Source: Candidatus Poribacteria bacterium | Lineage (GTDB): Bacteria > Poribacteria > WGA-4E > WGA-3G | Reading direction: 5' to 3' | Length of the DNA stretch: 64,000 nt | Assembly: GCA_963665235.2 (NCBI GenBank) | Contig: CAXXLX010000001.1 | Span: 2,560,001-2,624,000 of the forward strand | Shown here: one piece after another, positions 4,818 through 61,571 of the stretch | Numbering within the stretch: the first letter of the stretch is position 1 | Layout: every line of letters starts with the position of its first letter | Translations under genes and position numbers: made by a program | The notes under the pieces: generated by a model | What the model saw: the letters and a program-made list of their open reading frames with translations, nothing else | What the model was told of the DNA's origin: nothing | Databases searched by the model: none

Positions 4818-5188
4818 TTTTTCATCTCTCTGTTTTATTGGCTATTGCGTTAATTGAGTATACCACAACCTGATGTTTGCTGTCAAATCTGATTGAGTGT
4901 GTAAAGTTTTTGTACAAGTAGGACTTACGCATTTCCCTCCGCTCCTCTACTAGCGGGATATCGGTATTAGTCCCAGTATTCGGGCAAACAGCCCGCTCTT
5001 CAAGGACGATATCTTTATAGAAGCACAAAACGCCCACCCCCTCTTAGTCCCAGTATTCGGGCAAGCAGCCCGCTCTTCAAGGACGATATCTTTATAGAAT
5101 GAAAAAAATGTTGTGGATTATTACCAATTATTGCCCGTCGCAGCCCTGATTCTAGGAGAAAAACGCATCGCGCATCACAACCCTATAC

Positions 5189-5421
5189 ACGTGAGCTTGA
5201 TAATAAATATCCGTTTTCTCTAAACATTTTTGAGGTTCTCCGAAAAAAGTGGAATGATTCTATAAAGATATCGTCCCTACGGGACTAAGAGGTGGGATGG
5301 AAACGGCTGCTTCTATAAAGATATCGTCCCTACGGGACTAAGAGGCGGGGAACCTTTTGTCCAGTATTCGGGCACACAGTCCGCTCCTCATACTGGGTCA
5401 AAACTTTTTTCAAACTCACGT
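5189..5421. mobile_element. MITE-like element (ACGTGAG...CTCACGT TIR family) carrying REP-like cargo
   Basis: Same ends as 44844-45014 and 53911-54123; no TSD seen for this copy. Confidence 0.65.
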
Positions 5422-12732: not shown

Positions 12733-13535
12733 TCATTTGAAAATGAGGTCAGTAGATCGGAATTTGAGTCGATCTTCTGTTTCAATCTCTGTTATAACTT
12801 TCCGCACATCAGTTTGGGATAAAATTTGCAATTCCCAGAGCAGTCGCAAAATATCAACTAATACCATTTTTATTAATTATTCTATCATTACCGGTTGTTA
12901 GAAATCAAACGGAGAACGGAAGACACGAACTGGAAGTTTATGCTACAATAAAGAGCACAAACTGGAAGTTTATGCTACAATAAAGAGCACAAACTGGAAG
13001 TTTATGCTACAATAAAGAGCACAAACTGGAAGTTTATGCTACAATAAAGAGCACAAACTGGAAGTTTATGCTACAATAAAGAGCACAAACTGGAAGTTTA
13101 TGCTACAATAAAGAGCACAAACTGGAAGTTTATGCTACAATAAAGAGACATTTTCAATTAGAAATGGTATAAGTTGATACAATGAATCCTGTTTGTTTGG
13201 CAATGATGCATTACACGTCTATCGTTGCTTGCAAGAGTCGCTGTGAAACGTTTACAGAGTGCCATAGATTCGCGTTCTCCTGCACCGAGCGTTTGCGGTA
13301 AAGAACTCATAAACTCGTGATCCGCGAGCGTTGTATGATATGTGCGGATCTGTCCTTGCGTTTGCAGCGCGATGATGTTATCAGAAAAGTGGAATCCCTT
13401 TGAGACACCGGTTTTGATTTCATTTTCCACAGCAAATGCGATATTAAGCGTCTCCTGGTCAAAAACAGTGAACAGTAACGTCAAACGTTGAATCTTTGCA
13501 AAAATAGATAGGATGTCGGTATCCACGAAAATCAA
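12733..13535 (-). pseudogene. PIN-domain (VapC-like) toxin interrupted by a MITE
   Basis: MIFVDTDIL, LGAGERES, SNDRR; removing 12861-13169 plus one TA restores ...CINLVDILRLLWELQ...LIFK*. Confidence 0.8.
12861..13169. mobile_element. TA-targeting MITE with 7 tandem 32-bp REP-like units
   Basis: TACCATTT termini, TA duplication at 12859-60 and 13170-71; units AACTGGAAGTTTATGCTACAATAAAGAGCACA at 12928-13151. Confidence 0.85.
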
Positions 13536-22327: not shown

Positions 22328-23455
22328 TTATTCTGAGGGGGGATAAGCGGTGTCAAGGGCAAGAACAGCATAACAGGTTGCCAATATGGGCAGTGCTTCC
22401 ATCCAGCGACTTGTTTCATTGACCCAGAATCCTTCCGGTTTCTGCAATGTCATCAGTTTTTCAGCCAATTCCTGATACCAGTCGTGTGTGATGCCTTTTG
22501 CGTCCACAAGGGTTGTTTTGCCGTAGAACCGTAACGCCTTCGCCATTGTGTGATAGTTATAGTAGAGCCCCTGGCCTCCCATGCCGTAGTTCTCTTCCAG
22601 TGTGAAGTGCTTTTCTATCCACTTGATAGCGGCTTGGACGCGTGCGTCGTTTTTGTCGACATTTGCATAGATAAAGCTCAACAACCCGGCATAAGTCATA
22701 CTGGCATAAGAGCGGGGGCTGCCTGCTTCATCTTTTCCCGCTTTGCTTTCACCGTCTGGCGAATAGATAAACCCGCCATCGTTCCCTGCCCACGGCTGAT
22801 CATTACTTTCGCTGCGGTTTTGGGTGCGTTCAAGGAATTTAATCGCCTTGTTCCAAACCTCTTGGTCATCGGAGCCGCTCTCCTTTAGTGCTTGGATAGC
22901 AAAGTTCAAGTTAGAGAGGTCATTTACAGTTTCACGACTGCCGTAACCGATACCGCCATAGTAAACGCTCTCCTCATCTTGGATCTGCAACCCCTTCAGA
23001 AAGGCTTGCGCCTTTTCAATTATTTTAGCATACTTCGGATTTCCCGTTGATGCAAGTGCCATTACGGAGATAGAGGTGTTGTAATTCGGCAGTGCTGGTT
23101 GCTTGTTCACGTCATAGATACCCCCGTTCGGTTGCTGCATCTTAACTAATTGCTGAATCGCTTTTTGGAGGAACGGGTGTGTTGCTTCCGTGTATTTTTT
23201 CTGCGGGTGCCGCAAAAAAGCGGTAACGGCGAGAGCTGTTATCCCAGGGTGGTCAGCGAACAGCCCATCTTCGGCTTGTTGCGTTTTCATCCATGCCAAT
23301 GCCTTGTCAATACTTGCAATGACTTTCAGGTTTAATTCATGATATTTCGCTGAATCTGCGTCAGGTTGAACTGTTGGGGCTGCCTCAATGTGCATTGCGG
23401 CACTGACGAGGAGTAGTATCACTAGGAGCCCAACCATATTTTTCATTTTCATTTT
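22328..23455 (-). CDS. Secreted prenyltransferase/squalene oxidase repeat protein
   Basis: Signal peptide; QAEDG, QQPNGG, GGIGYG, DLSN, DGGFIY, QKPEGFW repeats; start uncertain. Confidence 0.8.
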   Translation of the reverse strand, partial: KMKMKNMVGLLVILLLVSAAMHIEAAPTVQPDADSAKYHELNLKVIASIDKALAWMKTQQAEDGLFADHPGITALAVTAFLRHPQKKYTEATHPFLQKAIQQLVKMQQPNGGIYDVNKQPALPNYNTSISVMALASTGNPKYAKIIEKAQAFLKGLQIQDEESVYYGGIGYGSRETVNDLSNLNFAIQALKESGSDDQEVWNKAIKFLERTQNRSESNDQPWAGNDGGFIYSPDGESKAGKDEAGSPRSYASMTYAGLLSFIYANVDKNDARVQAAIKWIEKHFTLEENYGMGGQGLYYNYHTMAKALRFYGKTTLVDAKGITHDWYQELAEKLMTLQKPEGFWVNETSRWMEALPILATCYAVLALDTAYPPSE

Positions 23456-23767
23456 CATTCTCCATTTTTCTGTAAATGTTGACGTGTCGGGTTTTACTTC
23501 GTTCACCCCGACCTACAGACGCGCCTCAGTAAGCGCGAATAGGCCTATTTTTGTTTGGGCTCATGTAAAGAATAAGTGCAGAAGAATTTAACCCGTGTGG
23601 CCATTGCGTTTACCTAGAACAATCGCACACACACTTTGATAACATGAGCCTTTGTTTGTATTATAGCAAATTTTATGCCAATTATCCAGCAGATGCTGCT
23701 AGGGGTTTCCCGCTTAGGGGCACCTGTGTTCGAAGGCAGATGCCGCTATTTAAGAGATAAATGGGAC

Positions 23768-23931
23768 TGTCCAGAATTTGAACAGTCCGCAGCGTTAAAT
23801 TGACAAGAAGTGGGGAGATAAACGTTATGTGTCTTTCGCTCGACCCTTTTATAGACAAGGCGCGTGGCACTTGCGGAATGTTGGATATGCAACTGTCCAA
23901 AAAATGAACAGCACTGTTCAGAATCTGGACA
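23768..23931. mobile_element. Small element bounded by ~20-bp imperfect inverted repeats
   Basis: CTGTCCAGAATTTGAACAGT ... ACTGTTCAGAATCTGGACAG. Confidence 0.5.
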
Positions 23932-23947
23932 GTTAGGCAGCATGAAA

Positions 23948-24431
23948 TTGACATACTCTCCCAGCTAAAGCAAGGGAGATTCTTAGAAAGAGTTCCGCTA
24001 CGCGTTAGCTATTGGATTGTGGTTTTCAGACGTGTGAACGTCAACGGGAATGCTTGAGCTGTTCAAGTCTTACTATCCCTAACTCAAAGGACAATGCCCT
24101 GCCCTCGTGCTTTCGCACCTTAAAAGAAGACTTGTGAATCAGTGCTTGGGTATCCAATGCAGCATTACCCGTCTTTTGGATACCGAAAGCATTGCACAAA
24201 ATGTGGATATTGACTGGGTATCGCCAGAACATCAGCACACAACCCTACCACAGGTTGAGGTTCGGAACTTCAACATTGTAAGAAGCGAGTTGAAGGTGGT
24301 AATCCGAACCACTGATGATACTTAATTATACTACAGTTTCGACCAAAAGTCAAGTTAAAATTTTAGCTCATGCGACTTTTCCGCACTACATCCCCCAGCT
24401 AAAGCACGGGGGTTTTGTAGCGGGGGACTTG
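23948..24431 (-). mobile_element. ORF-less IS200/IS605-type element with internal promoter and structured RNA (copy A)
   Basis: Subterminal CCC..CTTTAGC..GGG hairpins at both ends, TTGACT-17-TATAAT (24353-24325), ends ...GAGTATGTCAA; homologue 43628-44101. Confidence 0.75.
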
Positions 24432-24525
24432 ATAAATGGTCGTTCCTTGCTAAAAAAAGTGAATTGTGATAGAGTTAACAGGACAATTGTTCCTAAAAAC
24501 TGGACTAAGAGGGAGGAAACAACTA

Positions 24526-29220: not shown

Positions 29221-29229
29221 GTATGGGTG

Positions 29230-30680
29230 TCTTCAGTCCAGTATGGACGCTATATTTATAGAAACCCGCGTGAACACCCTCTTGAACCCCGTAGGGGTGA
29301 TATGTGAACACATCAGTTTGGGCATCACAATATGTCGTTCCTATTTCTTCAGTCCCAGTATTCGGGCAAACGGTTTCCCGCTCCTCAGGGACGCTATGTT
29401 TATAGAAAAGCGTGTGAACATAGTCTTGAATCCCGTAGGGGTGATATGTGAACACATCAGTTTGTGCGTCACAATAGGTCGCTCCTATTTCTTCAGTCCC
29501 AGTATGGACGCTATATTTATAGAAAATCGCGTGAACACCCAGTCTTGAACCCCGTAGGGGTGATATGTGAACACATCAGTTTGGGCGTCACAATATGTCG
29601 TTCCTATTTCTTCAGTCCAGTATGGACGCTATATTTATAGAAAACACCGTGAACACCCTCTTGAACCCCGTAGGGGTGATATGTGAACACATCAGTTTGG
29701 GCATCACAACAGGTCGCTCCTATTTCTTCAGTCCCAGTATTCGGGCAAACGGTTTCCCGCTCCTCAGGGACGCTATATTTATAGAAAACGTGTGAACATA
29801 GTCTTGAACCCCGTAGGGGTGATATGTGAACACATCAGTTTGGGCATCACAACAGGTCGCTCCTATTTCTTCAGTCCAGTATGGACGCATTTATAGAAAA
29901 CATCGTGAACCTCGTCTTGAACCCCGTAGGGGTGATATGTGAACGCATTAGTTTGGGCATCACAATATGTCGTTCCTATTTCTTCAGTATATTTATAGAA
30001 AACATCGTGAACACCGTCTTGAACCCCGTAGGGGTGATATGTCAACGCATTAGTTTGGGCATCACAATATGTCGTTCCTATTTCTTCAGTCCAGTATGGA
30101 CGCTATATTTATAGAAAAGCGCGTGTTTCTTCAGTCCAGTATGGACGCTATATTTATAGAAAATCGTATGAACACCCTCTTGAACCCCGTAGGGGTGATA
30201 TGTCAACGCATTAGTTTGTGCATCACAATATGTCGCTCCTATTTCTTCAGTCCAGTATGGACGCTATATTTATAGAAAATCGCGTGTTTCTTCAGTCCAG
30301 TATGGACGCTATATTTATAGAAAAATCGTATGAACACCGTCTTGAACCCCGTAGGGGTGATATGTCAACGCATTAGTTTGGTTGGGCATCACAATATGTC
30401 GCTCCTCCCGTATGGACGCTATATTTATAGAAAATCGCGTGTTTCTTCAGTCCAGTATGGACGCTATATTTATAGAAAATCGTATGAACACCCTCTTGAA
30501 CCCCGTAGGGGTGATATGTGAACGCATTAGTTTGGGCATCACAATATGTCGCTCCTCCCGTATGGACGCTATATTTATAGAAAAGCGCGTGTTTCTTCAG
30601 TCCAGTATGGACGCTATATTTATAGAAAACATCGTGAACCTCGTCTTGAACCCCGTAGGGGTGATATGTCAACGCATTAG
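29230..30680. repeat. ~1.45-kb tandem array of composite REP-like units (11 x CTTGAAcCCCGTAGGGGTGATATGT plus TTCTTCAGTCCAGTATGGACGCTATATTTATAGAAAA modules)
   Basis: Counted directly; linker segments are homologous to each other rather than unique. Confidence 0.9.
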
Positions 30681-30746
30681 TCTGAAAGTTTATGCTACAC
30701 ATCGGGGTGATAAACCCCACCAACAACTAACGAAGGAGTTTCTTTC

Positions 30747-31573: not shown

Positions 31574-33081
31574 ATGAAAAAACTATTTCAGAAGCAGCTG
31601 CTTTACGCCTGCTTAATAACAGTCCTCTGTTTTGGCATCACGGCACTAAGTTATGGGCAAGCCGTGGTCTCCATAAACCCCGCAGAGGTGGTGTCCCCCG
31701 CCGTGGGACAGCAGATGACGGTTACGATTAAAATAGCCAAAGGCACGCGTGTCGCCGGCTACGACTTAACAATACGGTATGATACAACTGCCCTGCAATA
31801 CGTTGAAATCACGAACAGCACGTATCTTCCGACAGGTGCGTTTGTTGCCCCGGCGGTGGTGTCCAGTGGCCGCATCATATTTGCGGCGACCTCGTTATCG
31901 GGAGCCGTAACTGCCAGTAGTGGCACCTTGGCAACGCTCAAATTCCAAGTGGTTGCGGTGAAAAAATCCACACTCCAACTCACTGATGTTGTCCTCACCG
32001 ACAAGGATGGCAACGCCTTGGCGGTCACGAAACGGAACGCCAACGTTGTTGTGAGACAATTGCTACCGACAGATATCAATAGAGATGGCAGAGTGAACGT
32101 GCAAGACCTCGTCTTAGTTGCGCGCGATCTCGGGAAGACAGGTACTCTCTCGACAGATCTGAACAGTGATAACAGAGTGAACGTGCAGGACCTTGTGTTA
32201 GTCGCACGCGACCTCGGGAAGACAACAAATAGTGGGGGGACCACGCCACCAGATGATGGCGGAACCACCACGCCGCCAGACGACGGCGGAACCACCACGC
32301 CACCGACCACTGACCCGTATGCAGGCATGGCACTAATCCCTGCTGGCGAATTTCGGATGGGAGGCAACGATGCACAGGCCCGGAGCAATGAAAAACCGGT
32401 GCATTCTGTCTATGTAGATGCATTTTACATGGATAAATATGAGGTTACCAATGCCCAATATGCAGCGTTCCTGAATGCGAAAGGCAAACACGCTGAGGGT
32501 GGTATCACCTGGTATCGCATTGGTCAAGATCGTTCTCGTATTGAGCTGGCATCTGGTAAGTATCGTGCGAAAACCGGGTATGAAAATCACCCTGTGACAT
32601 ACGTGAGTTGGTATGGTGCGATGGCTTATGCGGCGTGGAAGGGCAAACGTCTGCCGACAGAAGCGGAGTGGGAAAAAGCTGCACGTGGCGGTTTAGCCGG
32701 TCTAAAATACCCGTGGGGTAACACCATAAATTCCACCAAGGCAAATTACAATAATCATATTAAGGATACCACTGCAGTAGGTAAGTATACTGCAAATGGT
32801 TACGGTTTATTCGATATGGCAGGGAATGTGTGGGAGTGGTGCTTAGACGAGTATAACGGAGGTTTCTATTCGGTTTCGCCAGCTCGGAATCCGTTGTCGG
32901 GTGCAAATAGTGTTGAATGGTTAATAAATAATTATAAAGGTGTTAAAAGTTCCCGCGTTTTGCGTGGTGGCTCCTGGAGCGGTACGGACAGGACGTGCGG
33001 GTCGCCTTTCGCGGCAGCAAGACGCCGCCGTACTCGAACGACTACTTCGGTTTTCGTTGTGCGAGGGCTGTAACCCCTTAA
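31574..33081 (+). CDS. DGR target: signal peptide - cohesin - dockerin - linker - FGE-sulfatase (CLec-fold) domain; 1-nt deletion in VR
   Basis: DINRDGRVNVQDLVLV x2 dockerin, F.MG..., RLPTEAEWEKAARGG, NGYGLFDMAGNVWEW, RVLRGGSW; native GFRCAR end lies in the shifted frame (stop 33081), read ORF stops at 33073. Confidence 0.88.
32947..33069 (+). repeat. DGR variable repeat (VR)
   Basis: Aligns to TR 33530-33653 with 20 substitutions at TR adenines, 1 non-A change, 1 A deletion. Confidence 0.95.
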
Positions 33082-33191: not shown

Positions 33192-33659
33192 ATGGCAGCA
33201 TCAACAGTTCAAGCGGTTCCAAAACTATACGATGTAATTGTGTGGTTGATGGGGCGCGTTGAAAAATTTCCGCGTTCCCAAAAGTTCACCCTCGGTGACC
33301 GAACTGTCAACCTTGCTCTGGATACACTAGAGTTGCTTATTGAAGCTACCTATACGCGGGACCGCTTGGTTTTGCTACGTAAAGCCAATGTGCAACTGGA
33401 AAAACTGCGTTTTATGATTCGGTTATGCGATTTTTGCGCAAACCATTTTCCGGAAATCATAAAAGATATATTCAAAAAGCGTGTCGCTCTCGATGCCTTT
33501 GCGTCGGGAGTTCACGAGGTTTCAAGCCGAAGTTCCCGCGTTTTGCGTGGTGGCTCCTGGAACAATACAGAACAAAACGTGCGGGTCGCCTTTCGCAACA
33601 ACAATACGCCAACGAACACGAACAACAACAACGGTTTTCGTTGTGCGAAGACACTTTAG
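33192..33659 (+). pseudogene. avd: Avd (accessory variability determinant), C-terminally truncated and read through into TR
   Basis: KFPRSQKFTLGDR...LELLIEATY...ANVQLEKLRFMIRL four-helix-bundle pattern; last helix absent; ORF continues through TR. Confidence 0.85.
33530..33653 (+). ncRNA. DGR template repeat (TR)
   Basis: AAC/AAT-rich copy of VR. Confidence 0.95.
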
Positions 33660-40585: not shown

Positions 40586-42300
40586 CTAATCGTCCCTTTG
40601 CGCCGCGGAGGACGATTGCTCAAGATGGGCTTGATAGAGTCGATTCTTGAAATCCGCATTGATTTCAGATTTTGACAATTTATTGTAAAGTTCCAGCTTG
40701 TTATTGACAAAATCCAATAAAATATCATCAACTACTTGTTCAAACTTATACCGTTTGTTGGTTTCCGCTGAAACGCTGCTTGGAGCTGTTCTGGTTCATT
40801 CACGAAGTCAAGCACTAGCGTATCGGTTTTACCAGTAGCGACACGGTTCAGACGGCTCAAGGTTTGGACACATTGTAACCCATCCAATCGCTTATCAACG
40901 TACATCGTCTGCAGCAGCGGCTCATCGAAACCTGTCTGGAACTTGTTCGCGACAATCAGAATCCGATATTCAGGACTCTTGAAACTGTCCTCGACGGAAG
41001 TGCTCGGCGGCAACAGATTCATCCCGCTTTCCGTGTATTCCTGCCCGTTATCGGTGTCTTGCACTGTGTTGCTGAACGCTACCAAACACCCGTAGGGAAG
41101 TCCCATCTCCTTCATCTGCCGATCAAACTCCTGCTTGTATCTGACGCAGTGCAGTCGGGAGGGTGTAACCAACATCGCTCGTCCCTTCCCTTCAATCGTT
41201 TTTGCCGTGTGTTCGGTGAAGTGTTCAAGGATAATCCGGGTTTTGGTCTCAATACTATGGGGTTGCAGGTCAACGTAATTGGTCAGTGCTCGAAGCGTTC
41301 GCGCCTTCTCGTACTCTCTATCCTCCTGTGCACTTTTAACCAATTGGAAGTATCTCTTAAAGGTGGTATAGTTCTGCAGCACGTCCAGTGTGAAACCTTC
41401 GCTGATACTTTGGCGCATGGAATAGACATGAAACGGGACAAATTTTCCTTCTGCGTCCTTCTGTCCAAAGAGTTCTAAGGTCTTGTTTTTCGGGGTGCCG
41501 CTGAAACCGAAATAGGAGATATGCTCTTGCATTCTGCGTTGTTCCATCTGTTCAAGGATTTTAGCGTCTATATCCGATACTTCATCGGCATCATGTTCCG
41601 TTTCCCCCTCTTCTATCCCCTTTGAGAGTGAAGCCCTGAGATTTCTCTCCGACTCCCCGCTCTGTGAGGAGTGCGCTTCGTCAATAATCACGGCGAAGGT
41701 CTTGCTTTTGAGTTTGCCTATCTCCTCGGCAATCACGCTGAACTTCTGAATCGTTGAGATGATGATGTCTTTGCCGGATTCGAGGAAACCTCTGAGTTGC
41801 GCTGAGGTCTTATCAACGGCATGGACTACCCCCTCGACCTGTGCTACCTGCTTGATTGTGTTCTGCAGCTGCTTGTCAAGGACGCGCCGGTCTGTTACGA
41901 CAATAATGGAGTCAAAGATGCGATTGGTATCGCTCTCCGACCGATACAGATGCGTGAGTAGGTGCGCCAACCACGCGATGGAGTTCGACTTCCCACTCCC
42001 TGTGGTGTGTTGGATGAGATATTTATGTCCAACCCCCTCTTTCTCGATAGCCGCTTGCAATTGACGAATCACATCCAGCTGATGATACCGTGGAAAAATA
42101 AGGACGCGGCGTTTCTCATCTGTCACAATTTTACTTCACGATTCTTTCCATTCAACAAAGGTATTGAAAACCCTCCAAACCCGCATGGGCACAAGACCGC
42201 CTACCTTTGGGAAGACATCCTGCAGCCCGATAATCTGATGACGTTAATCAACAACTTTATCTACGAGCAGGAAACCACAGAAAAGGTTTACAATCTGACA
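40586..42300 (-). pseudogene. hsdR: Type I restriction subunit R, truncated, internally deleted, with an inverted fragment
   Basis: PRYHQL, HTTGSGKS, DEAH, FQTGFD, QTLSRLNR; C-terminus in another frame; upstream PFNKG...YLWEDIL segment on the + strand. Confidence 0.85.
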
Positions 42301-42650: not shown

Positions 42651-43218
42651 TTATTCACCTCCTTTTACCTCTAAAATACCAAATATCATTAATAGTGCAA
42701 TTGCCAATATCCCTACAATAAATAAAATTATAGAAGTGACAATTAGAAATGTACCTATTTTATTTGCTGTACTCCTCTTAGTGGCTGCTTCCTCTATATT
42801 ATACCATTTCTAATTGAAAATGTCTCTTTCTTGTAGCATAAACTTCCAGTTTGTGCCGTTCTCCGTTTCATTTCTAACAACTGGTAATGGTAGAATAATT
42901 AATAAAAATGGTATTATATAGGTAATATTGTTCGTTAAATTCCCTCTGTTTATGTAAAGCCCTTTGGATAAACAAATAGGAAATTACACCCAGGATAATG
43001 GAAAAAACAAATGGCGCATAACTAATTAGCATGATCCATGTTCTATGATTAATGTCCCAATTGATATACGCAGTCAATAGTATCAATATAACGCCAGAAA
43101 AATATCTCATAGACTTATTGAGTTCCACATCGTTACTCATCAGGCTATCAAATATAGTTTTTTCTTCAGCGAGATATTGTGCGTACCTTTCTTTTTGCAA
43201 TTCTTCTTCATTTGACAT
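42651..43218 (-). pseudogene. Membrane protein interrupted by TA-MITE
   Basis: Removing 42802-42914 plus one TA restores ...QYYLYNIEEAATKRS...GILEVKGGE*. Confidence 0.75.
42802..42914. mobile_element. TA-targeting MITE (single REP unit)
   Basis: Inverted homologue of 12861-13169; TA at 42800-01 and 42915-16. Confidence 0.85.
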
Positions 43219-43627
43219 AATATACACCGATTTCTGTTGATTACATCAACATTAACAGTATAATCAGTATTGGCAAAGTCCTGAAACTACCCCCTTAAAT
43301 CATACTACATTCCAGAAACTTTGTCATAAAATCCACTGAGCCTCCGGCAGTCACAATTTTGCGAATACGGTCGGGTTACCGAAAAACTCGACAGCAAACG
43401 ATCTTAGCGTCCCTAAAACCGATTACTTGCCAAGCAGAAAATTGTCGGCACGCTCACAGGGAGAAATTGTTCAACCCTGCCTCTTTTCTAACCGTAGAGG
43501 CAGGATTGGCAAAGTTTCCAAAGCTACGTCTTAATTATACCACATTCCAGAAACTTTATCAAATTAAAATTAACTGAATATTTGGAAAAGAACTTGACTT
43601 ATCTTGGGTTAAATGTTATAATATTAT

Positions 43628-44101
43628 CAAGTCTTCCGCTACAAAACCCCCGTGCTTTAGCTGGGGGATGTAGTAGCGGCGCATGAGCTAAAATTTTAAT
43701 TTGACTTTTGCATTAAAATGTGGTATAATATATATATCATCAGTGGTTCGGATTACCACCTTCAACGCCACCAATGTTGAAGTTCCGAACCTCAACCTAT
43801 GGTAGGGTTGTGTGCTGATGTTCTGGCGATACCCAGTCAATATCCACATTTTTGTGCAATGCTTTCGGTATCCAAAAGACGGGTCATGCTGCATTGGATA
43901 CCAAAGCACTGATTCACAAGCATAAAGAAGGTGCGAAGCACGAGGGCAGGGCATTGTCCTTTGAGTTAGGGGCAGTAAGACTTGGAACAGCCCAAGCATC
44001 TCCGTTGACGTTCACACGTCTGAAAACCACAATCCAATAGCTAACGCGTAGCGGAACTTTTTAAAAGAATCTCCCTTGCTTTAGCTGGGAGAGTATGTCA
44101 A
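43628..44101 (+). mobile_element. ORF-less IS200/IS605-type element with internal promoter and structured RNA (copy B)
   Basis: Preceded by TTAT; TTGACT-17-TATAAT at 43701-43729; right end GAATCTCCCTTGCTTTAGCTGGGAGAGTATGTCAA. Confidence 0.75.
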
Positions 44102-44153
44102 TGTGCAGGACTGAACCCTCCCTCGGTGGGGGATGTAGGCCCTGCTTTTTTTT
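44102..44153 (+). ncRNA. Candidate small hairpin RNA/terminator convergent on the DUF3800 gene
   Basis: GCAGG...CCTGC stem then T8; orphan promoter at 43594-43622 on the other side of the inserted element. Confidence 0.4.
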
Positions 44154-44167
44154 ATGCTATTTTTTAT

Positions 44168-44815
44168 TCAGGAAGTTGGTCGTATAATTCCTTCAGATAT
44201 TGGTTCTAACAAATTAAATGCCTGGTCGAGACCATACTTCGTTTTAGAAGCGATCGGACGTTCTTGACGAAGCAACGCATAAGCGCAAAAATCAGACAAC
44301 TGAATGAAATATGACTGATCGGATTTCTTAAAAAACGGATCTTCAATAATACGATCAATTGCACCATTTTTTGAAGTTTGCATGCGTCTAACTAATCTTG
44401 TATAGATAGCATCTTTTCCTTCATCACAGATTAAGATCGCATGACTATTCCACCTTTGTAAAGTCCGATTGATATCCTCGAGTAAAGCTGCATAAGCGTG
44501 CTTGCTCGCTTTAGCTGGGAACACGCTGCTAAAAAGTCGTGTTTCTGGCAAGGTTGCCACCATTTGAAGTGTCTGTTTGAAAATTTGGCATCGCCGCCCT
44601 TTGGGAACTACGCCATCAGCAATTCTTCCGCGCCCTGAAACAAATTTCCACGCATGGAATTCAGTGTAAACAGAGATGCTGTCACTCGTCTGTATATCGT
44701 GACGAAAGTCTTTTATTTTCTTAAGACAAGAGTTCCATTTATCATCACGAATCGTTAAGGCTGAAAATATACATAGTTTCTCATCTCCAGAGTCGTCAAT
44801 GTAAATTAGGTGCAT
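44168..44815 (-). CDS. DUF3800 domain protein
   Basis: YIDDSG, EFHA, DEG, IQLSDFCAY (QxxD). Confidence 0.85.
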   Translation of the reverse strand: MHLIYIDDSGDEKLCIFSALTIRDDKWNSCLKKIKDFRHDIQTSDSISVYTEFHAWKFVSGRGRIADGVVPKGRRCQIFKQTLQMVATLPETRLFSSVFPAKASKHAYAALLEDINRTLQRWNSHAILICDEGKDAIYTRLVRRMQTSKNGAIDRIIEDPFFKKSDQSYFIQLSDFCAYALLRQERPIASKTKYGLDQAFNLLEPISEGIIRPTS

Positions 44816-44843: not shown

Positions 44844-45014
44844 ACGCGGGCTTGATAATAAATGTCCGTTTGTGCTAGCCTCTATAAACATATCGTCCTT
44901 GAGGAGCGGGAAACCGTTTGCCCGAATACTGGGACTAAGAGGCGGTGGGGAGACGGCTGCTTCTATAAACATATCGTCCCTACGGGACTAAAGAAACTTT
45001 TTTCAAACTCACGT
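44844..45014. mobile_element. ACGTGAG-type MITE with 6-bp TSD (TATCTA)
   Basis: TATCTA at 44838-43 and 45015-20. Confidence 0.8.
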
Positions 45015-45167: not shown

Positions 45168-46895
45168 TTATAAACCCAACACCTCATTCAGCAAACCTGC
45201 ACTTCTCCGTTCCAATGCCAATATTTCATCGGCAATCTCCTTCAGTGAGCGCAGCGGCGTGTACTGATAGAAATACCGATTGAAGTTAATCTCGTACCCT
45301 ACCTTATCCCTCTTCCTATCTATCCAACTGTCGGGCACATGCGGTTTCACTTCTCGCTGGTAGGAAGCGTCAACATCCTCTGTGATGGGCACCCGTTCAT
45401 AGTCTCGCAGCTTGGTATCCGGTTTCGGATTGCCCTGTTTGTCCGTGACGATATCCCCTGTCTCCGCGTCAATGAGCGGTCTCTCAACCGTTACCTTTGT
45501 ATAACCGAAAAAGTCGTTTGGATAAATTTTTGAGTGTTCGGTCTCCTCAAAGTTGGTGTAGAGTTGTATCAGCTGACGGATATGGTTATCGGAAACGAGA
45601 ACGTTCTTGTCTCCGAGGTTTCTTTTCAGCTCGTCGCGGAAGTCAACGGCGTTGATGAGTTGGACCTTCCCTTGTCGTGCCTCCGATTTTTTGTTCGTTA
45701 GTATCCAGATATAGGTGGCAATATTGGTGTTAAAGAACAGCTTTTCAGGCAGTGCGATAATACACTCCAACCAGTCGTTCTCGATGATCCAACGTCGGAT
45801 TTCACTTTCACCGCTGCCGGCATCCCCTGTAAAGAGCGGTGACCCGTTAAAGACGATTCCAATCCGACTCCCGCGGGCCTCCATTTTGGAGAGCATGTGT
45901 TGCAAGAACAGCAATGCGCCATCGGAGGAGCGAGGCGTGCCTGCTGAGAATCTGCCGGTAGCGGTTTGCGCTTCTGCCTTCACCGCAGGTTCGTCAGATT
46001 TCCAACTGACACCGAAGGGCGGATTCGTAATCATATAATCGAACCGTTCTCCTCGGAATTGGTCCTCGGAGAGACTGGAGCCGTGTCGTATATTGTTGGG
46101 CTCCTCTCCGGTAATGAGCATATCCGACTTACAGATAGCGTAGGTCTGCGCGTTCAGTTCCTGACCCAACAACCGAATGTCAGCATTCGGATTAATCTGC
46201 TCACGGAAGTACTCCTTCCCAACGGTCAACATGCCGCCTGTCCCGCAGCAGGGATCAAAGATACTGCGGACGACCCCTTTTCCGTGCAGGTCTTCGTGAT
46301 GTTCCGCAAATAGCAGTGAGACCAATAATCGCACGACATCCCGCGGCGTGTAGTGTTCTCCGCTGGTCTCGTTGGACATTTCCGAGAATCGGCGGAGCAG
46401 CTCTTCAAAGACCGAGCCCATCGTGTGGTTATCCACCTTATCGGGATGTAAATCGATTTCGGTAAATTTATCGCAAAAGATGAACAGTCGGTTGTTTTTG
46501 TCCAGTCGCTCAATAAACCCATCGAGATTGAAGTTTTCGATGATGTCGCGCACGTCTTGACTGAATCCGCCGATGTAGTTTTCAAAGTTGAGGTGGATAT
46601 TGTTTGCATCTTCTTTCAGTCGGGAGAGGTCGTATTGTGAGATGTTGTAGAAATTAGTTTTTGTCTCTTTTAGAATAATCCGAGGTAGCATTTCTTCGGA
46701 CACTTTATCCTTAAACTCGTTATAGGTATGAATGGCTTTCTCTTTTCGTCCATCCTCGTCTAGGAGACAGTCTAATCGGCGTAACACCAGAAACGGAAGG
46801 GTGATGTCGCCGTATTCGTGTGGTTTGAACAGTCCTCTGAGCACATCATCCGCCACGTTCCAAACCAGATTTGCCAGTTCTTGATAATTTGCCAT
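45168..46895 (-). CDS. hsdM: Type I restriction-modification methyltransferase subunit M
   Basis: GEHYTPRDVV, DPCCGTGGML, NPPF, FNTNIATYIW. Confidence 0.93.
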   Translation of the reverse strand: MANYQELANLVWNVADDVLRGLFKPHEYGDITLPFLVLRRLDCLLDEDGRKEKAIHTYNEFKDKVSEEMLPRIILKETKTNFYNISQYDLSRLKEDANNIHLNFENYIGGFSQDVRDIIENFNLDGFIERLDKNNRLFIFCDKFTEIDLHPDKVDNHTMGSVFEELLRRFSEMSNETSGEHYTPRDVVRLLVSLLFAEHHEDLHGKGVVRSIFDPCCGTGGMLTVGKEYFREQINPNADIRLLGQELNAQTYAICKSDMLITGEEPNNIRHGSSLSEDQFRGERFDYMITNPPFGVSWKSDEPAVKAEAQTATGRFSAGTPRSSDGALLFLQHMLSKMEARGSRIGIVFNGSPLFTGDAGSGESEIRRWIIENDWLECIIALPEKLFFNTNIATYIWILTNKKSEARQGKVQLINAVDFRDELKRNLGDKNVLVSDNHIRQLIQLYTNFEETEHSKIYPNDFFGYTKVTVERPLIDAETGDIVTDKQGNPKPDTKLRDYERVPITEDVDASYQREVKPHVPDSWIDRKRDKVGYEINFNRYFYQYTPLRSLKEIADEILALERRSAGLLNEVLGL

Positions 46896-47533: not shown

Positions 47534-47815
47534 AAAAATATCCAAACGAAATTGACAGCTTTAACGAGTTGTGCTAAATGACTTTTTGTACAACATTATT
47601 TCACACGAACAGAACGTTTTGCCCGTGTTTCTCATTGGTTTGGACAATCTTCAGTCCCGTAGGGACGATATATTTATAGCTAAACGTTCCACCTTTCTCT
47701 TTAGTCCCGTAGGGACGATATGTTTGTCCGACAACATCCAATATCTGTGAGAAAAACAAAAACAATCAGTTAACTGGCACAAGTCGTAGCTTTAACAACA
47801 ATTGAGTACTGTGTT

Positions 47816-53910: not shown

Positions 53911-54123
53911 ACGTGAGCTTGATAATAAATATCCGTTTTCTCTAAACCTTTTTCATCGCGAAAAAAGCGGTATAATTGTAGCATAAACTTCCTAGTTTGT
54001 GCTCTAAACCTTTTTCATCGCGAAAAAAGCGGTATAATTGTAGCATAAACTTCCTAGTTTGTGCTGTTTTTTGCTAAAACTACCACAGAACGCTCTAGGT
54101 CAAAACTTTTTTCAAACTCGCGT
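53911..54123. mobile_element. ACGTGAG-type MITE with 6-bp TSD (GAGGTA) and duplicated GTAGCATAAAC REP-like unit
   Basis: GAGGTA at 53905-10 and 54124-29. Confidence 0.8.
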
Positions 54124-61001: not shown

Positions 61002-61039
61002 GTCGCTCCTTTCTTTTTAAGATGAAGAGACTCCCTTAA

Positions 61040-61571
61040 CAATCCCAAGTCTTTAGCTTTGGGTCCAACCCGCGTCTCTTGTGCGACCGCAAATCAAAAG
61101 AAGAACTTTGACTTTTGCACTTGATTCGTGGTATAATATTAGCATAACCCGTGGCAACCTATGTCTCTCTAATACTTGTTAGAGTGGTTGCCCATCCTAA
61201 AGACATAATGGGTTAAGGTTATGGGTTTATTCCGATTTTAAACAACTTCCGTTATCCTGCTATAAGCGAAGGTTAACGGTGCAGGAATTGTAAAACAATG
61301 CTTTGCCACGAAGATAGTGAGTCAGAAAGCGTATCAGGAGGCTGCCCAAACCATTGGTCTCCTGTAGTAGCGTCTGTGGAGCGCGCCGCCTTTGTCATAA
61401 AAGGTCAAGCATTCGTGAACTGCGAATGTCGTAACTTCGGTTTTTCAGGTCACCCGAAGGGGACTTACACCGATGGAGCCGCCGATGAGCGGTAAAATGC
61501 TGCCCGTATGTCTGTAGGGAGACGGGCCTTCTTTATGAGGTCCCACTGCTTTAGCTGTGGGAGTGCTTCAC
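61040..61571 (+). mobile_element. ORF-less IS200/IS605-type element with promoter and structured RNA (element C, second sequence type)
   Basis: CCC..CTTTAGC..GGG hairpins at both ends, TTGACT-18-TATAAT (61108-61137), ends ...GGGAGTGCTTCAC; left boundary approximate. Confidence 0.65.

Follow-up and report, generated by a model that had tools for sequence, protein, structure and literature searches.

The DNA examined here is a 64-kb stretch (referred to throughout as the window) of a genome that is probably that of a sponge symbiont, and it contains two closely related, gene-less elements in opposite orientation: copy B, of 474 nt, at 43628-44101 on the forward (+) strand, and copy A, of 484 nt, at 23948-24431 on the reverse (-) strand. 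The copies are homologous from end to end, with 90.2% identity over 488 aligned columns, and are separated by several 1-, 2- and 5-nt indels. The alignment breaks off precisely at the left junction TTAT|CAAGTC and at the right junction GTATGTCAA|, beyond which the flanking sequences are unrelated. The TTAT preceding each left end (43624-43627, +, for copy B; 24432-24435, -, for copy A) represents the insertion target and the presumed transposon-associated motif (TAM); the right flanks, which begin TGTG and TTTC, bear no relation to it, and neither copy displays a target-site duplication. On the sequence comparisons reported below, we identify copies A and B as palindrome-associated transposable elements (PATEs), internal-deletion derivatives of a TnpB insertion sequence (IS) that carry, at their 3' ends, a homologue of a TnpB-linked omega-RNA scaffold.

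Both copies are too short for a transposase gene and contain none. The sole open reading frame (ORF) of at least 90 aa inside copy B (43688-43999, -; 103 aa) has no Pfam match, and none of the ORFs of that minimum length in copy A corresponds to it; a tblastn comparison of both copies with 22 ORFs from related loci (described below) returned only a match of about 21 aa over the right-end hairpin, with a best E-value of 0.035. The presumed transcripts are predicted to fold more stably than shuffled sequences: copy B scored z -3.5 (1 of 100 shuffles as good) and copy A z -2.8 (none of 100).

The termini of the element lack inverted repeats and are marked by imperfect palindromes, similar to one another, that lie near both ends. 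In copy B the left end (43628-43700, +) includes the hairpin CCCCCGTGCTTTAGCTGGGGG at 43647-43667, with AAAA just 5' of its foot, and the right end comprises the hairpin TCTCCCTTGCTTTAGCTGGGAGA at 44070-44092, followed by the tail GTATGTCAA at 44093-44101; the left end of copy A spans 24354-24431 (-), with its hairpin at about 24412-24392. Left and right hairpins, both of the CTTTAGC type, share, in the loop region, the core GCTTTAGCT on stems that differ in a compensating manner (CCCCC/GGGGG on the left versus TCTCCC/GGGAGA on the right). A 21-nt degenerate motif describing left and right ends alike matched four times in the window and not once in 100 shuffles. Both ends have the geometry of IS200/IS605 elements, and specifically that of IS608: in copy B exactly 19 nt separate the left cleavage site from the CCCCC foot of its hairpin, and on the right 10 nt, AGTATGTCAA, lie between the GGGAG foot and the cleavage site. 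In these elements a guide tetranucleotide specifies the target through a base-by-base pairing rule. IS608 of Helicobacter pylori is described as having TTAC 19 nt 5' of the left foot, TCAA 10 nt 3' of the right foot and the guide AAAG (PMC3201880); the window element thus shares with it the 19-nt and 10-nt spacings and has, like it, a 4-nt guide 5' of the left foot (AAAA in place of AAAG), and differs in that IS608 encodes tnpA and tnpB and targets TTAC, while the window element has neither gene and is preceded by TTAT. By analogy, AAAA would specify TTAT as AAAG specifies TTAC.

About 70 nt inside the left end, and facing the right end, each copy carries a sigma-70-type promoter, TTGACT-17-TATAAT, that agrees with the consensus at 11 of 12 positions (43701-43729, +, in copy B, where a TG lies upstream of the -10 hexamer; 24353-24325, -, in copy A). 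The hexamers are intact in both copies and in a third cassette of the window described below, and the spacers of copies A and B differ. To this point our analysis bears out a preliminary description of the window, which had recognized two close homologues starting right after TTAT and ending in GTATGTCAA before unrelated flanks, subterminal CTTTAGC hairpins, IS200/IS605-type ends, a near-consensus sigma70 promoter with conserved hexamers and a variable spacer, many stems, and no credible ORF.

To compare the element with relatives, genome contigs were scanned with the end motif, which located at least 96 stretches; 95 loci, denoted here by L numbers, were kept. Among 79 of the listed loci that have titles, 30 are from Candidatus Poribacteria, and the remainder come from, among others, Methylobacter, Acinetobacter, Streptomyces, Rickettsiaceae and archaea, so that the right-end motif is widespread. 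In the related loci, 14 intact left ends were inspected and TTAT stands directly 5' of every one; five of them (L016, L021, L050, L052 and L078) have boundaries that were placed by analogy only.

The most informative similarity concerns the 3' portion of the element. A covariance model (R1), its helices hand-drawn, was trained on just six Poribacteria right-end regions: the confirmed tnpB 3' ends of L007, L050 and L072, together with L086, L006 and L054, where the short upstream DNA does not allow a tnpB to be confirmed. It matched copy B at 43938-44101 (+; 86.0 bits, E 3.9e-26) and copy A at 23948-24110 (-; 87.3 bits, E 1.5e-26), in both cases over the full model (positions 1-165 of 165) and stopping exactly at the element boundaries, 44101 and 23948. 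Among 47 sources these were the best matches outside the training set, whose six members scored 199-209 bits. A family of ORF-less elements of about 545 nt gave 47-59 bits in ten full-length matches and 39.5 bits in a copy cut by the end of its locus, other full-length right ends gave 19.6-39.4 bits, and left-end hairpins alone gave 16.7-19.4 bits, the lowest of these values being that of the left hairpin of copy A (24392-24412).

When the last 165 nt of copies A and B were aligned with the tnpB 3' end and right end of L007, L050, L072 and L086, the helices appeared in identical order, with conserved single-stranded motifs (a GGGCAU loop, UUAG, AGACUUG and CCACAAUCC) and stems that vary by paired changes; against the 3' end of L050, the similarity of the scaffold reached z 34. 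In an alignment of 18 sequences (16 distinct rows), standard pairs occupy 99.2% of cells and 16 of 35 pairs have changed on both sides. None of 500 shuffles attained the observed percentage of pairing, number of both-side changes or covariation score, and slid controls were 39-55% paired. Copies A and B themselves are distinguished by two double compensatory changes, G-C versus A-U in helix 2 and again in helix 3, and by one further pair that is G-C in one and G-U in the other. G-U pairs are frequent, which points to this strand as the one that is folded. By sequence and structure alike, then, the 3' 165 nt are a true homologue of TnpB-linked omega-RNA scaffolds. The preliminary description had proposed an omega-RNA-like structured RNA of about 370 nt; this holds for the 3' 165 nt, and the upstream portion of some 200 nt is better described as a leader.

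A covariance search against Rfam, suggested in the preliminary description, came back empty: no family reached its gathering score anywhere in the window, HEARO (RF02033) and the group I intron/IStron models included, and with E-values up to 10 only two noise matches fell within 43500-44250. In a search of 12 related loci, HgcC (RF00062) scored 24.7-27.5 bits at the right ends of L049, L050 and L020, below its cut-off of 50, and it had no match in the window. Because this sub-threshold similarity was all that appeared, Rfam lacks a model that could serve for this clade of omega-RNAs; within the coverage of Rfam, an IscB-type (HEARO) omega-RNA, group I or II introns (IStron) and known small RNAs are ruled out.

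The leader, predicted by folding to form several long hairpins, occupies 43736-43937 (+) in copy B and 24111-24318 (-) in copy A, and that of copy B has no relative among the 95 loci compared. A second model (R2), made from the tnpB 5' untranslated regions (UTRs) of L050 and L072, found nothing in the element with default filters; with filters off it matched 43738-43833, the expected place, at 8.9 bits (E 0.11). The first 95 nt or so of the leader may correspond to a structured tnpB 5' UTR.

The parentage of the element emerges from comparison with loci in other genomes. Among the loci listed, 16 of the 22 ORFs used as protein queries terminate at the right-end hairpin or within it; these 16 are 353-428 aa long, and all 13 of them examined with Pfam contain OrfB_IS605 together with Cas12f1-like_TNB, which identifies those 13 as TnpB. 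The L050 protein also matches the structures of ISDra2 TnpB, 8bf8 and 8exa (E 1.9e-33), a homology judged on the protein and not on RNA folds. L050, L007, L072 and also L016 are TnpB-only elements of the IS605 family that present the same TTAT, left hairpin, promoter module, scaffold and GTATGTCAA right end as the window copies; both ends and the promoter are thus common to the window element and these four loci from other genomes. Positions 1-107 of copy B align to L050 from its left boundary, TTTAT|CAATCTTCC, through the promoter, with a score of 71.5 against a shuffle mean of 22.7 (z 16). The same promoter module stands upstream of tnpB in L050 (TTGACC-17-TATAAT) and L072 (TTGACA-17-TATAAT), and weaker forms occur in L043, L056, L064/L058 and L021, so the promoter of the cassette is that of the parental tnpB and not a new acquisition. 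The preliminary description had proposed a search for tnpB loci with the same ends; these were found in other Poribacteria genomes and not in the window.

Where these relatives carry a tnpB of 400 aa, the window copies keep only a remnant of about 55 nt. In copy B this stretch (43863-43917, +; element positions 236-290), from the RuvC-I region, is colinear with nt 499-566 of the L050 tnpB, which encode aa 166-188, PKTGHAAGFDFG, and it includes an 18-nt exact match to L050 at 43876-43893. Dinucleotide shuffles reached the score of the remnant in none of 300 trials with L050, in 5 with L072 and in 30 with L007, the last two aligning at the same tnpB position as L050; with the distant tnpB genes of L043, L056 and L016 there was no signal (62, 104 and 181 of 300). 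The remnant is detectable at the nucleotide level only, not by tblastn. Since the left end with promoter, the tnpB fragment and the scaffold all match L050, and do so in the order that these blocks have there, the element is an internal-deletion derivative, and since copies A and B have identical internal deletions at unrelated sites, the deleted form itself must have transposed. A decayed tnpB ORF in the interior had been offered in the preliminary description as an observation that would speak against an RNA element. A fragment of one is indeed present; the scaffold nonetheless remains a homologue of omega-RNA, a reading that stands despite the remnant because the parental omega-RNA overlaps the tnpB 3' end in any case. 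On the alignments described, the interior consists of the remains of a TnpB element and is not a novel RNA gene.

In L050, L072 and L007, the codons around the RuvC-I motif (tnpB nt ~490-570) can form a hairpin, for example CCGAAGTC...GACTTCGG in L050, and in the window element the remnant caps a hairpin that is perfect and considerably longer, GGTATCCAA...TTGGATACC. A kissing interaction between the GGGCAU loop of helix 1 and the loop of the tnpB remnant was considered and dropped, since L007 and L072 do not covary in the way it would require.

Elements of this general kind are already on record. In Haloquadratum walsbyi, PATEs of IS605 type have been described, some derived by deletion of the core (PMC3119063), and according to that account they share with the window copies the lack of terminal inverted repeats and of target duplication, the subterminal palindromes, and a length too short for a transposase. 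Compared with the elements as described there, those of the window are bacterial and have kept a complete omega-RNA scaffold together with a strong promoter; the description, of 2011 (PMC3119063), predates knowledge of omega-RNA. In Geobacillus stearothermophilus, PATE-like elements are reported often to encode omega-RNAs that need, in trans, the TnpB of another element (Meers 2023, PMC10055086); they too belong to IS200/IS605, lack genes and have both ends conserved. The window copies differ from them in host and IS clade and in having a structured leader of about 200 nt before the scaffold; they also retain the tnpB promoter by the left end, and the Geobacillus elements may have promoters as well. 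Because omega-RNA-encoding PATEs have been described in that work, the kind of element is known. A literature search combining Poribacteria and TnpB found no paper.

Relatives of the element in other genomes fall into several types. In blastn searches of the 95 loci, matches were confined to the left end and the final ~37-43 nt of the element, and the interior (positions ~135-435) had no close relative. The ORF-less family of about 545 nt is represented by full copies in nine Poribacteria loci (L022, L023, L027, L034, L038, L052, L055, L065 and L078), a partial copy (L081) and a truncated one (L060). Its members run from TTAT to GTATGTCAA, like the window copies, and have a different 5' part of about 330 nt, and inspection of the sequence beside the left end revealed no obvious promoter. 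L064 is an ORF-less element of about 570 nt, the start of which also occurs in L058; its left end is homologous to that of copy B, and about the first 133-138 nt are 74% identical to the window copies. L021 is a mini-element of about 170 nt consisting of left end, promoter and right end, and L016 and L050, as noted, have the same left and right ends around tnpB. The window itself harbors a third, diverged ORF-less cassette of a different family (61020-61571, +; left boundary approximate), with a left-end-like hairpin CCCAAGTCTTTAGCTTTGGG at 61044-61063, the promoter module TGACTTTTG...GTGGTATAAT at 61109-61137, an interior of about 430 nt that folds strongly (z -3.1), and the right end GGTCCCACTGCTTTAGCTGTGGGAGTGCTTCAC, also written ...GCTTTAGCTGTGGGAGTGCTTCAC. 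Its scaffold matched the full R1 model at 61405-61571 with 19.6 bits (E 5.9e-5).

The sequences immediately 3' of the right ends bear on the use to which the scaffolds may be put. In ISDra2 the right-end RNA stops at the right end, and the guide, drawn from the flank, lies 3' of the scaffold. The flank that would serve as guide, by its position next to the right end, is TGTGCAGGACTGAACC... for copy B (44102-44121, +) and TTTCATGCTGCCTAAC... for copy A (23928-23947, -); neither has a second match in the window, the search with that of copy B having allowed up to 3 mismatches. A terminator-like hairpin with a T-run lies downstream of copy B at 44125-44154 (+). Downstream of copy A a GAACAG-TG-CTGTTC hairpin followed by ATTTTTT (23899-23919, -) was read by eye, its 2-nt loop having caused the terminator scan to miss it; this hairpin and T-run lie some 28-48 nt past the right end. 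At 44116-44154 (+), in the 3' flank of copy B, a hairpin CCCTCCCTCGGTGGGGG is followed by ATGTAG, repeating the 11-nt GGGGGATGTAG of the left end, with the T-run after it. This arrangement could be due to chance, be a remnant of another left end, or reflect a preferred target context; as a second left end the GGGGGATGTAG hairpin was rejected, there being no TTAT at the right distance and no further similarity.

We consider it likely that copies A and B are PATEs bearing an omega-RNA, derived from a TnpB-only insertion sequence of the L050/L007/L072 type, moved by TnpA and retained by TnpB in trans. The history would begin with an insertion sequence like L050, L007 or L072 that underwent two large internal deletions. 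The parts kept would be the cis-acting ones: the left end with the hairpin recognized by TnpA, the AAAA guide, the tnpB promoter, and the ~165-nt scaffold with the right end; a short fragment of tnpB would have been retained along with them. From the retained promoter, an RNA of about 370 nt, composed of leader and scaffold, would run into the 3' flank, and a TnpB of the L050/L007 clade, encoded elsewhere, would bind its 3' portion and probably trim it. The 16-20 nt after GTCAA would then act as guide, with TTAT as TAM. TnpA, likewise in trans, would excise the element and insert it 3' of TTAT; TnpB with the cassette RNA would cut the empty TTAT|flank joint left by excision, and recombination with a sister copy would restore the element. 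Cutting of the empty joint followed by restoration is the 'homing' model of Meers et al. (PMC10055086). The predicted empty joints at the two sites are ...AATATTAT|TGTGCAGGACTG... and ...CCATTTAT|TTTCATGCTGCC..., and the occupied site would escape cutting because GTCAA, not TTAT, precedes the guide match there. In sum, TnpA probably moves and TnpB probably retains the element, both in trans, the 3' flank providing the guide and TTAT the TAM, so that the cassette would exploit both the mobility and the retention functions of its autonomous relatives.

Several observations count against this account. Among the 49 ORFs of at least 90 aa in the window, Pfam reveals no Y1 transposase (tnpA) and no tnpB, and tblastn of the 22 related-locus ORFs against the window gave nothing at E-values up to 0.01. 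The partner proteins are therefore assumed to reside in the same genome, and the scaffold, with no tnpB in the element or the window, is to be regarded as an orphan omega-RNA: neither copy overlaps or adjoins a tnpB of its own, as an omega-RNA otherwise would. Within the window only two copies, and no empty site, were seen. The promoter is predicted from its consensus match and its conservation. The covariation alignment was fitted to R1, with helices taken from the training sequences, and leans towards the structure, and single-stranded DNA of that strand could adopt the fold as well. As to a role for the 5' portion of some 200 nt, R2 gave no more than the weak match noted above, and in the minimum-energy fold of copy B the 31 columns that differ between the copies comprise 14 unpaired positions, 7 insertions at loop edges or in linkers, and 10 substitutions at paired positions, of which only 5 keep a standard pair, so that there is at most a hint of structural constraint on the leader.

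A more far-reaching interpretation is that the cassettes are free-standing, promoter-driven mobile guide-RNA genes, each new insertion automatically directing a TnpB from elsewhere in the genome against the allele as it was before insertion. Several families that differ in their 5' RNA domains (the two in the window, that of about 545 nt, and the L064 type) would then compete for the same TnpB in Poribacteria genomes, and the ~200-nt leader would be a functional addition, serving stability or loading, and not debris. We put this forward tentatively, as possible and less than probable. If true, the cassettes would be hyperparasites of IS605 elements, and their natural uncoupling of guide from nuclease would be a step from TnpB towards CRISPR-Cas12.

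It is also conceivable, and in our view unlikely, that the copies are inert relics, decaying deletion products of a TnpB insertion sequence that are not effectively transcribed, do not move and are not used by any TnpB. The surviving tnpB fragment, the lack of tnpA or tnpB nearby in the window and the presence of only two copies there would all fit such a fate, and core-deleted IS605 elements are described as common debris in other genomes (PMC3119063). Decay is, however, hard to reconcile with a deletion architecture shared at unrelated loci and with intact TTAT and GTCAA junctions; nor would it be expected to leave the promoter hexamers and every scaffold helix intact in both copies despite about 10% divergence, with two of the scaffold differences being compensatory.

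Two further proposals find little favour with us. The elements might be mobile cassettes for an outward promoter or small RNA, acting by read-through or through a TnpB-independent RNA with the omega-RNA likeness as mere ancestry, as the strong consensus promoter facing the right end and the orientation of copy A towards genes on the same strand (23682-23954 and 22328-23506) could suggest; we think this highly improbable, given terminator-like hairpins and T-runs within ~25-55 nt past both copies, a convergent gene (44168-44815, -) opposite copy B, and use of the same promoter to drive tnpB in the parental elements. Equally hard to credit is an exapted guide serving a nuclease-dead TnpB-like repressor (TldR-type) or another TnpB relative in host gene control: RNA-guided transcription factors derived from TnpB relatives are reported (PMC10705468), but the guides here match nothing else in the window, the ends are still fully transposon-like, and no TnpB-like gene is adjacent.

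As to the surroundings of the elements, Pfam matches among the 49 ORFs include WD40, TPR, sulfatase, cohesin and dockerin domains and FGE-sulfatase proteins, a gene content typical of Candidatus Poribacteria. The genomes in which relatives of the element occur also speak for a probable origin of the window in that group. Copy B lies inside a type I restriction-modification neighbourhood, near an HsdR-like fragment (40732-42126) and HsdM (45168-46895), and the gene convergent to it (44168-44815, -) encodes a DUF3800 protein. A repeat of about 93-160 nt, which resembles a REP or MITE family, forms a dense array of 12 copies at 29228-30684, with palindromic cores such as AGTCCCGTAGGGACGATAT and CCCCGTAGGGGTGATATGTGAAC, and is scattered as single copies at 44844-44991, 4967-5341 and 47646-47738, one of them close to copy B, just past the DUF3800 gene. 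Seven tandem repeats of a 32-nt unit, CACAAACTGGAAGTTTATGCTACAATAAAGAG, occupy 12892-13179, with related inverted copies at 42799-42916 and a duplicated 62-nt unit with the same core at 53940-54063. The segment 31571-33659 (+) looks like a diversity-generating-retroelement pair: a 77-nt repeat (32988-33064) that ends an FGE-sulfatase/cohesin/dockerin protein recurs at 33572-33648 with 82% identity, several of the differences falling at A positions of the second copy, and a bAvd-like ORF (33192-33659) adjoins the repeat. No reverse transcriptase was found among the Pfam matches of the ORFs neighbouring this segment.

For annotation, the consequence is that three regions of the window that could be taken for intergenic structured RNAs are mobile-element derivatives and not new RNA classes. 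The element described here provides a clean natural instance of an omega-RNA gene set apart from its nuclease gene, complete with the promoter of its parent and both transposon ends, in a lineage without cultivated members, probably Poribacteria, in whose genomes several cassette families of this sort are present. It supplies compact scaffolds, a candidate TAM in TTAT, and matched candidates for the TnpB partner in the L050/L007/L072 clade. Should their RNA be used in trans, the cassettes would show how guide and effector can become uncoupled in nature.

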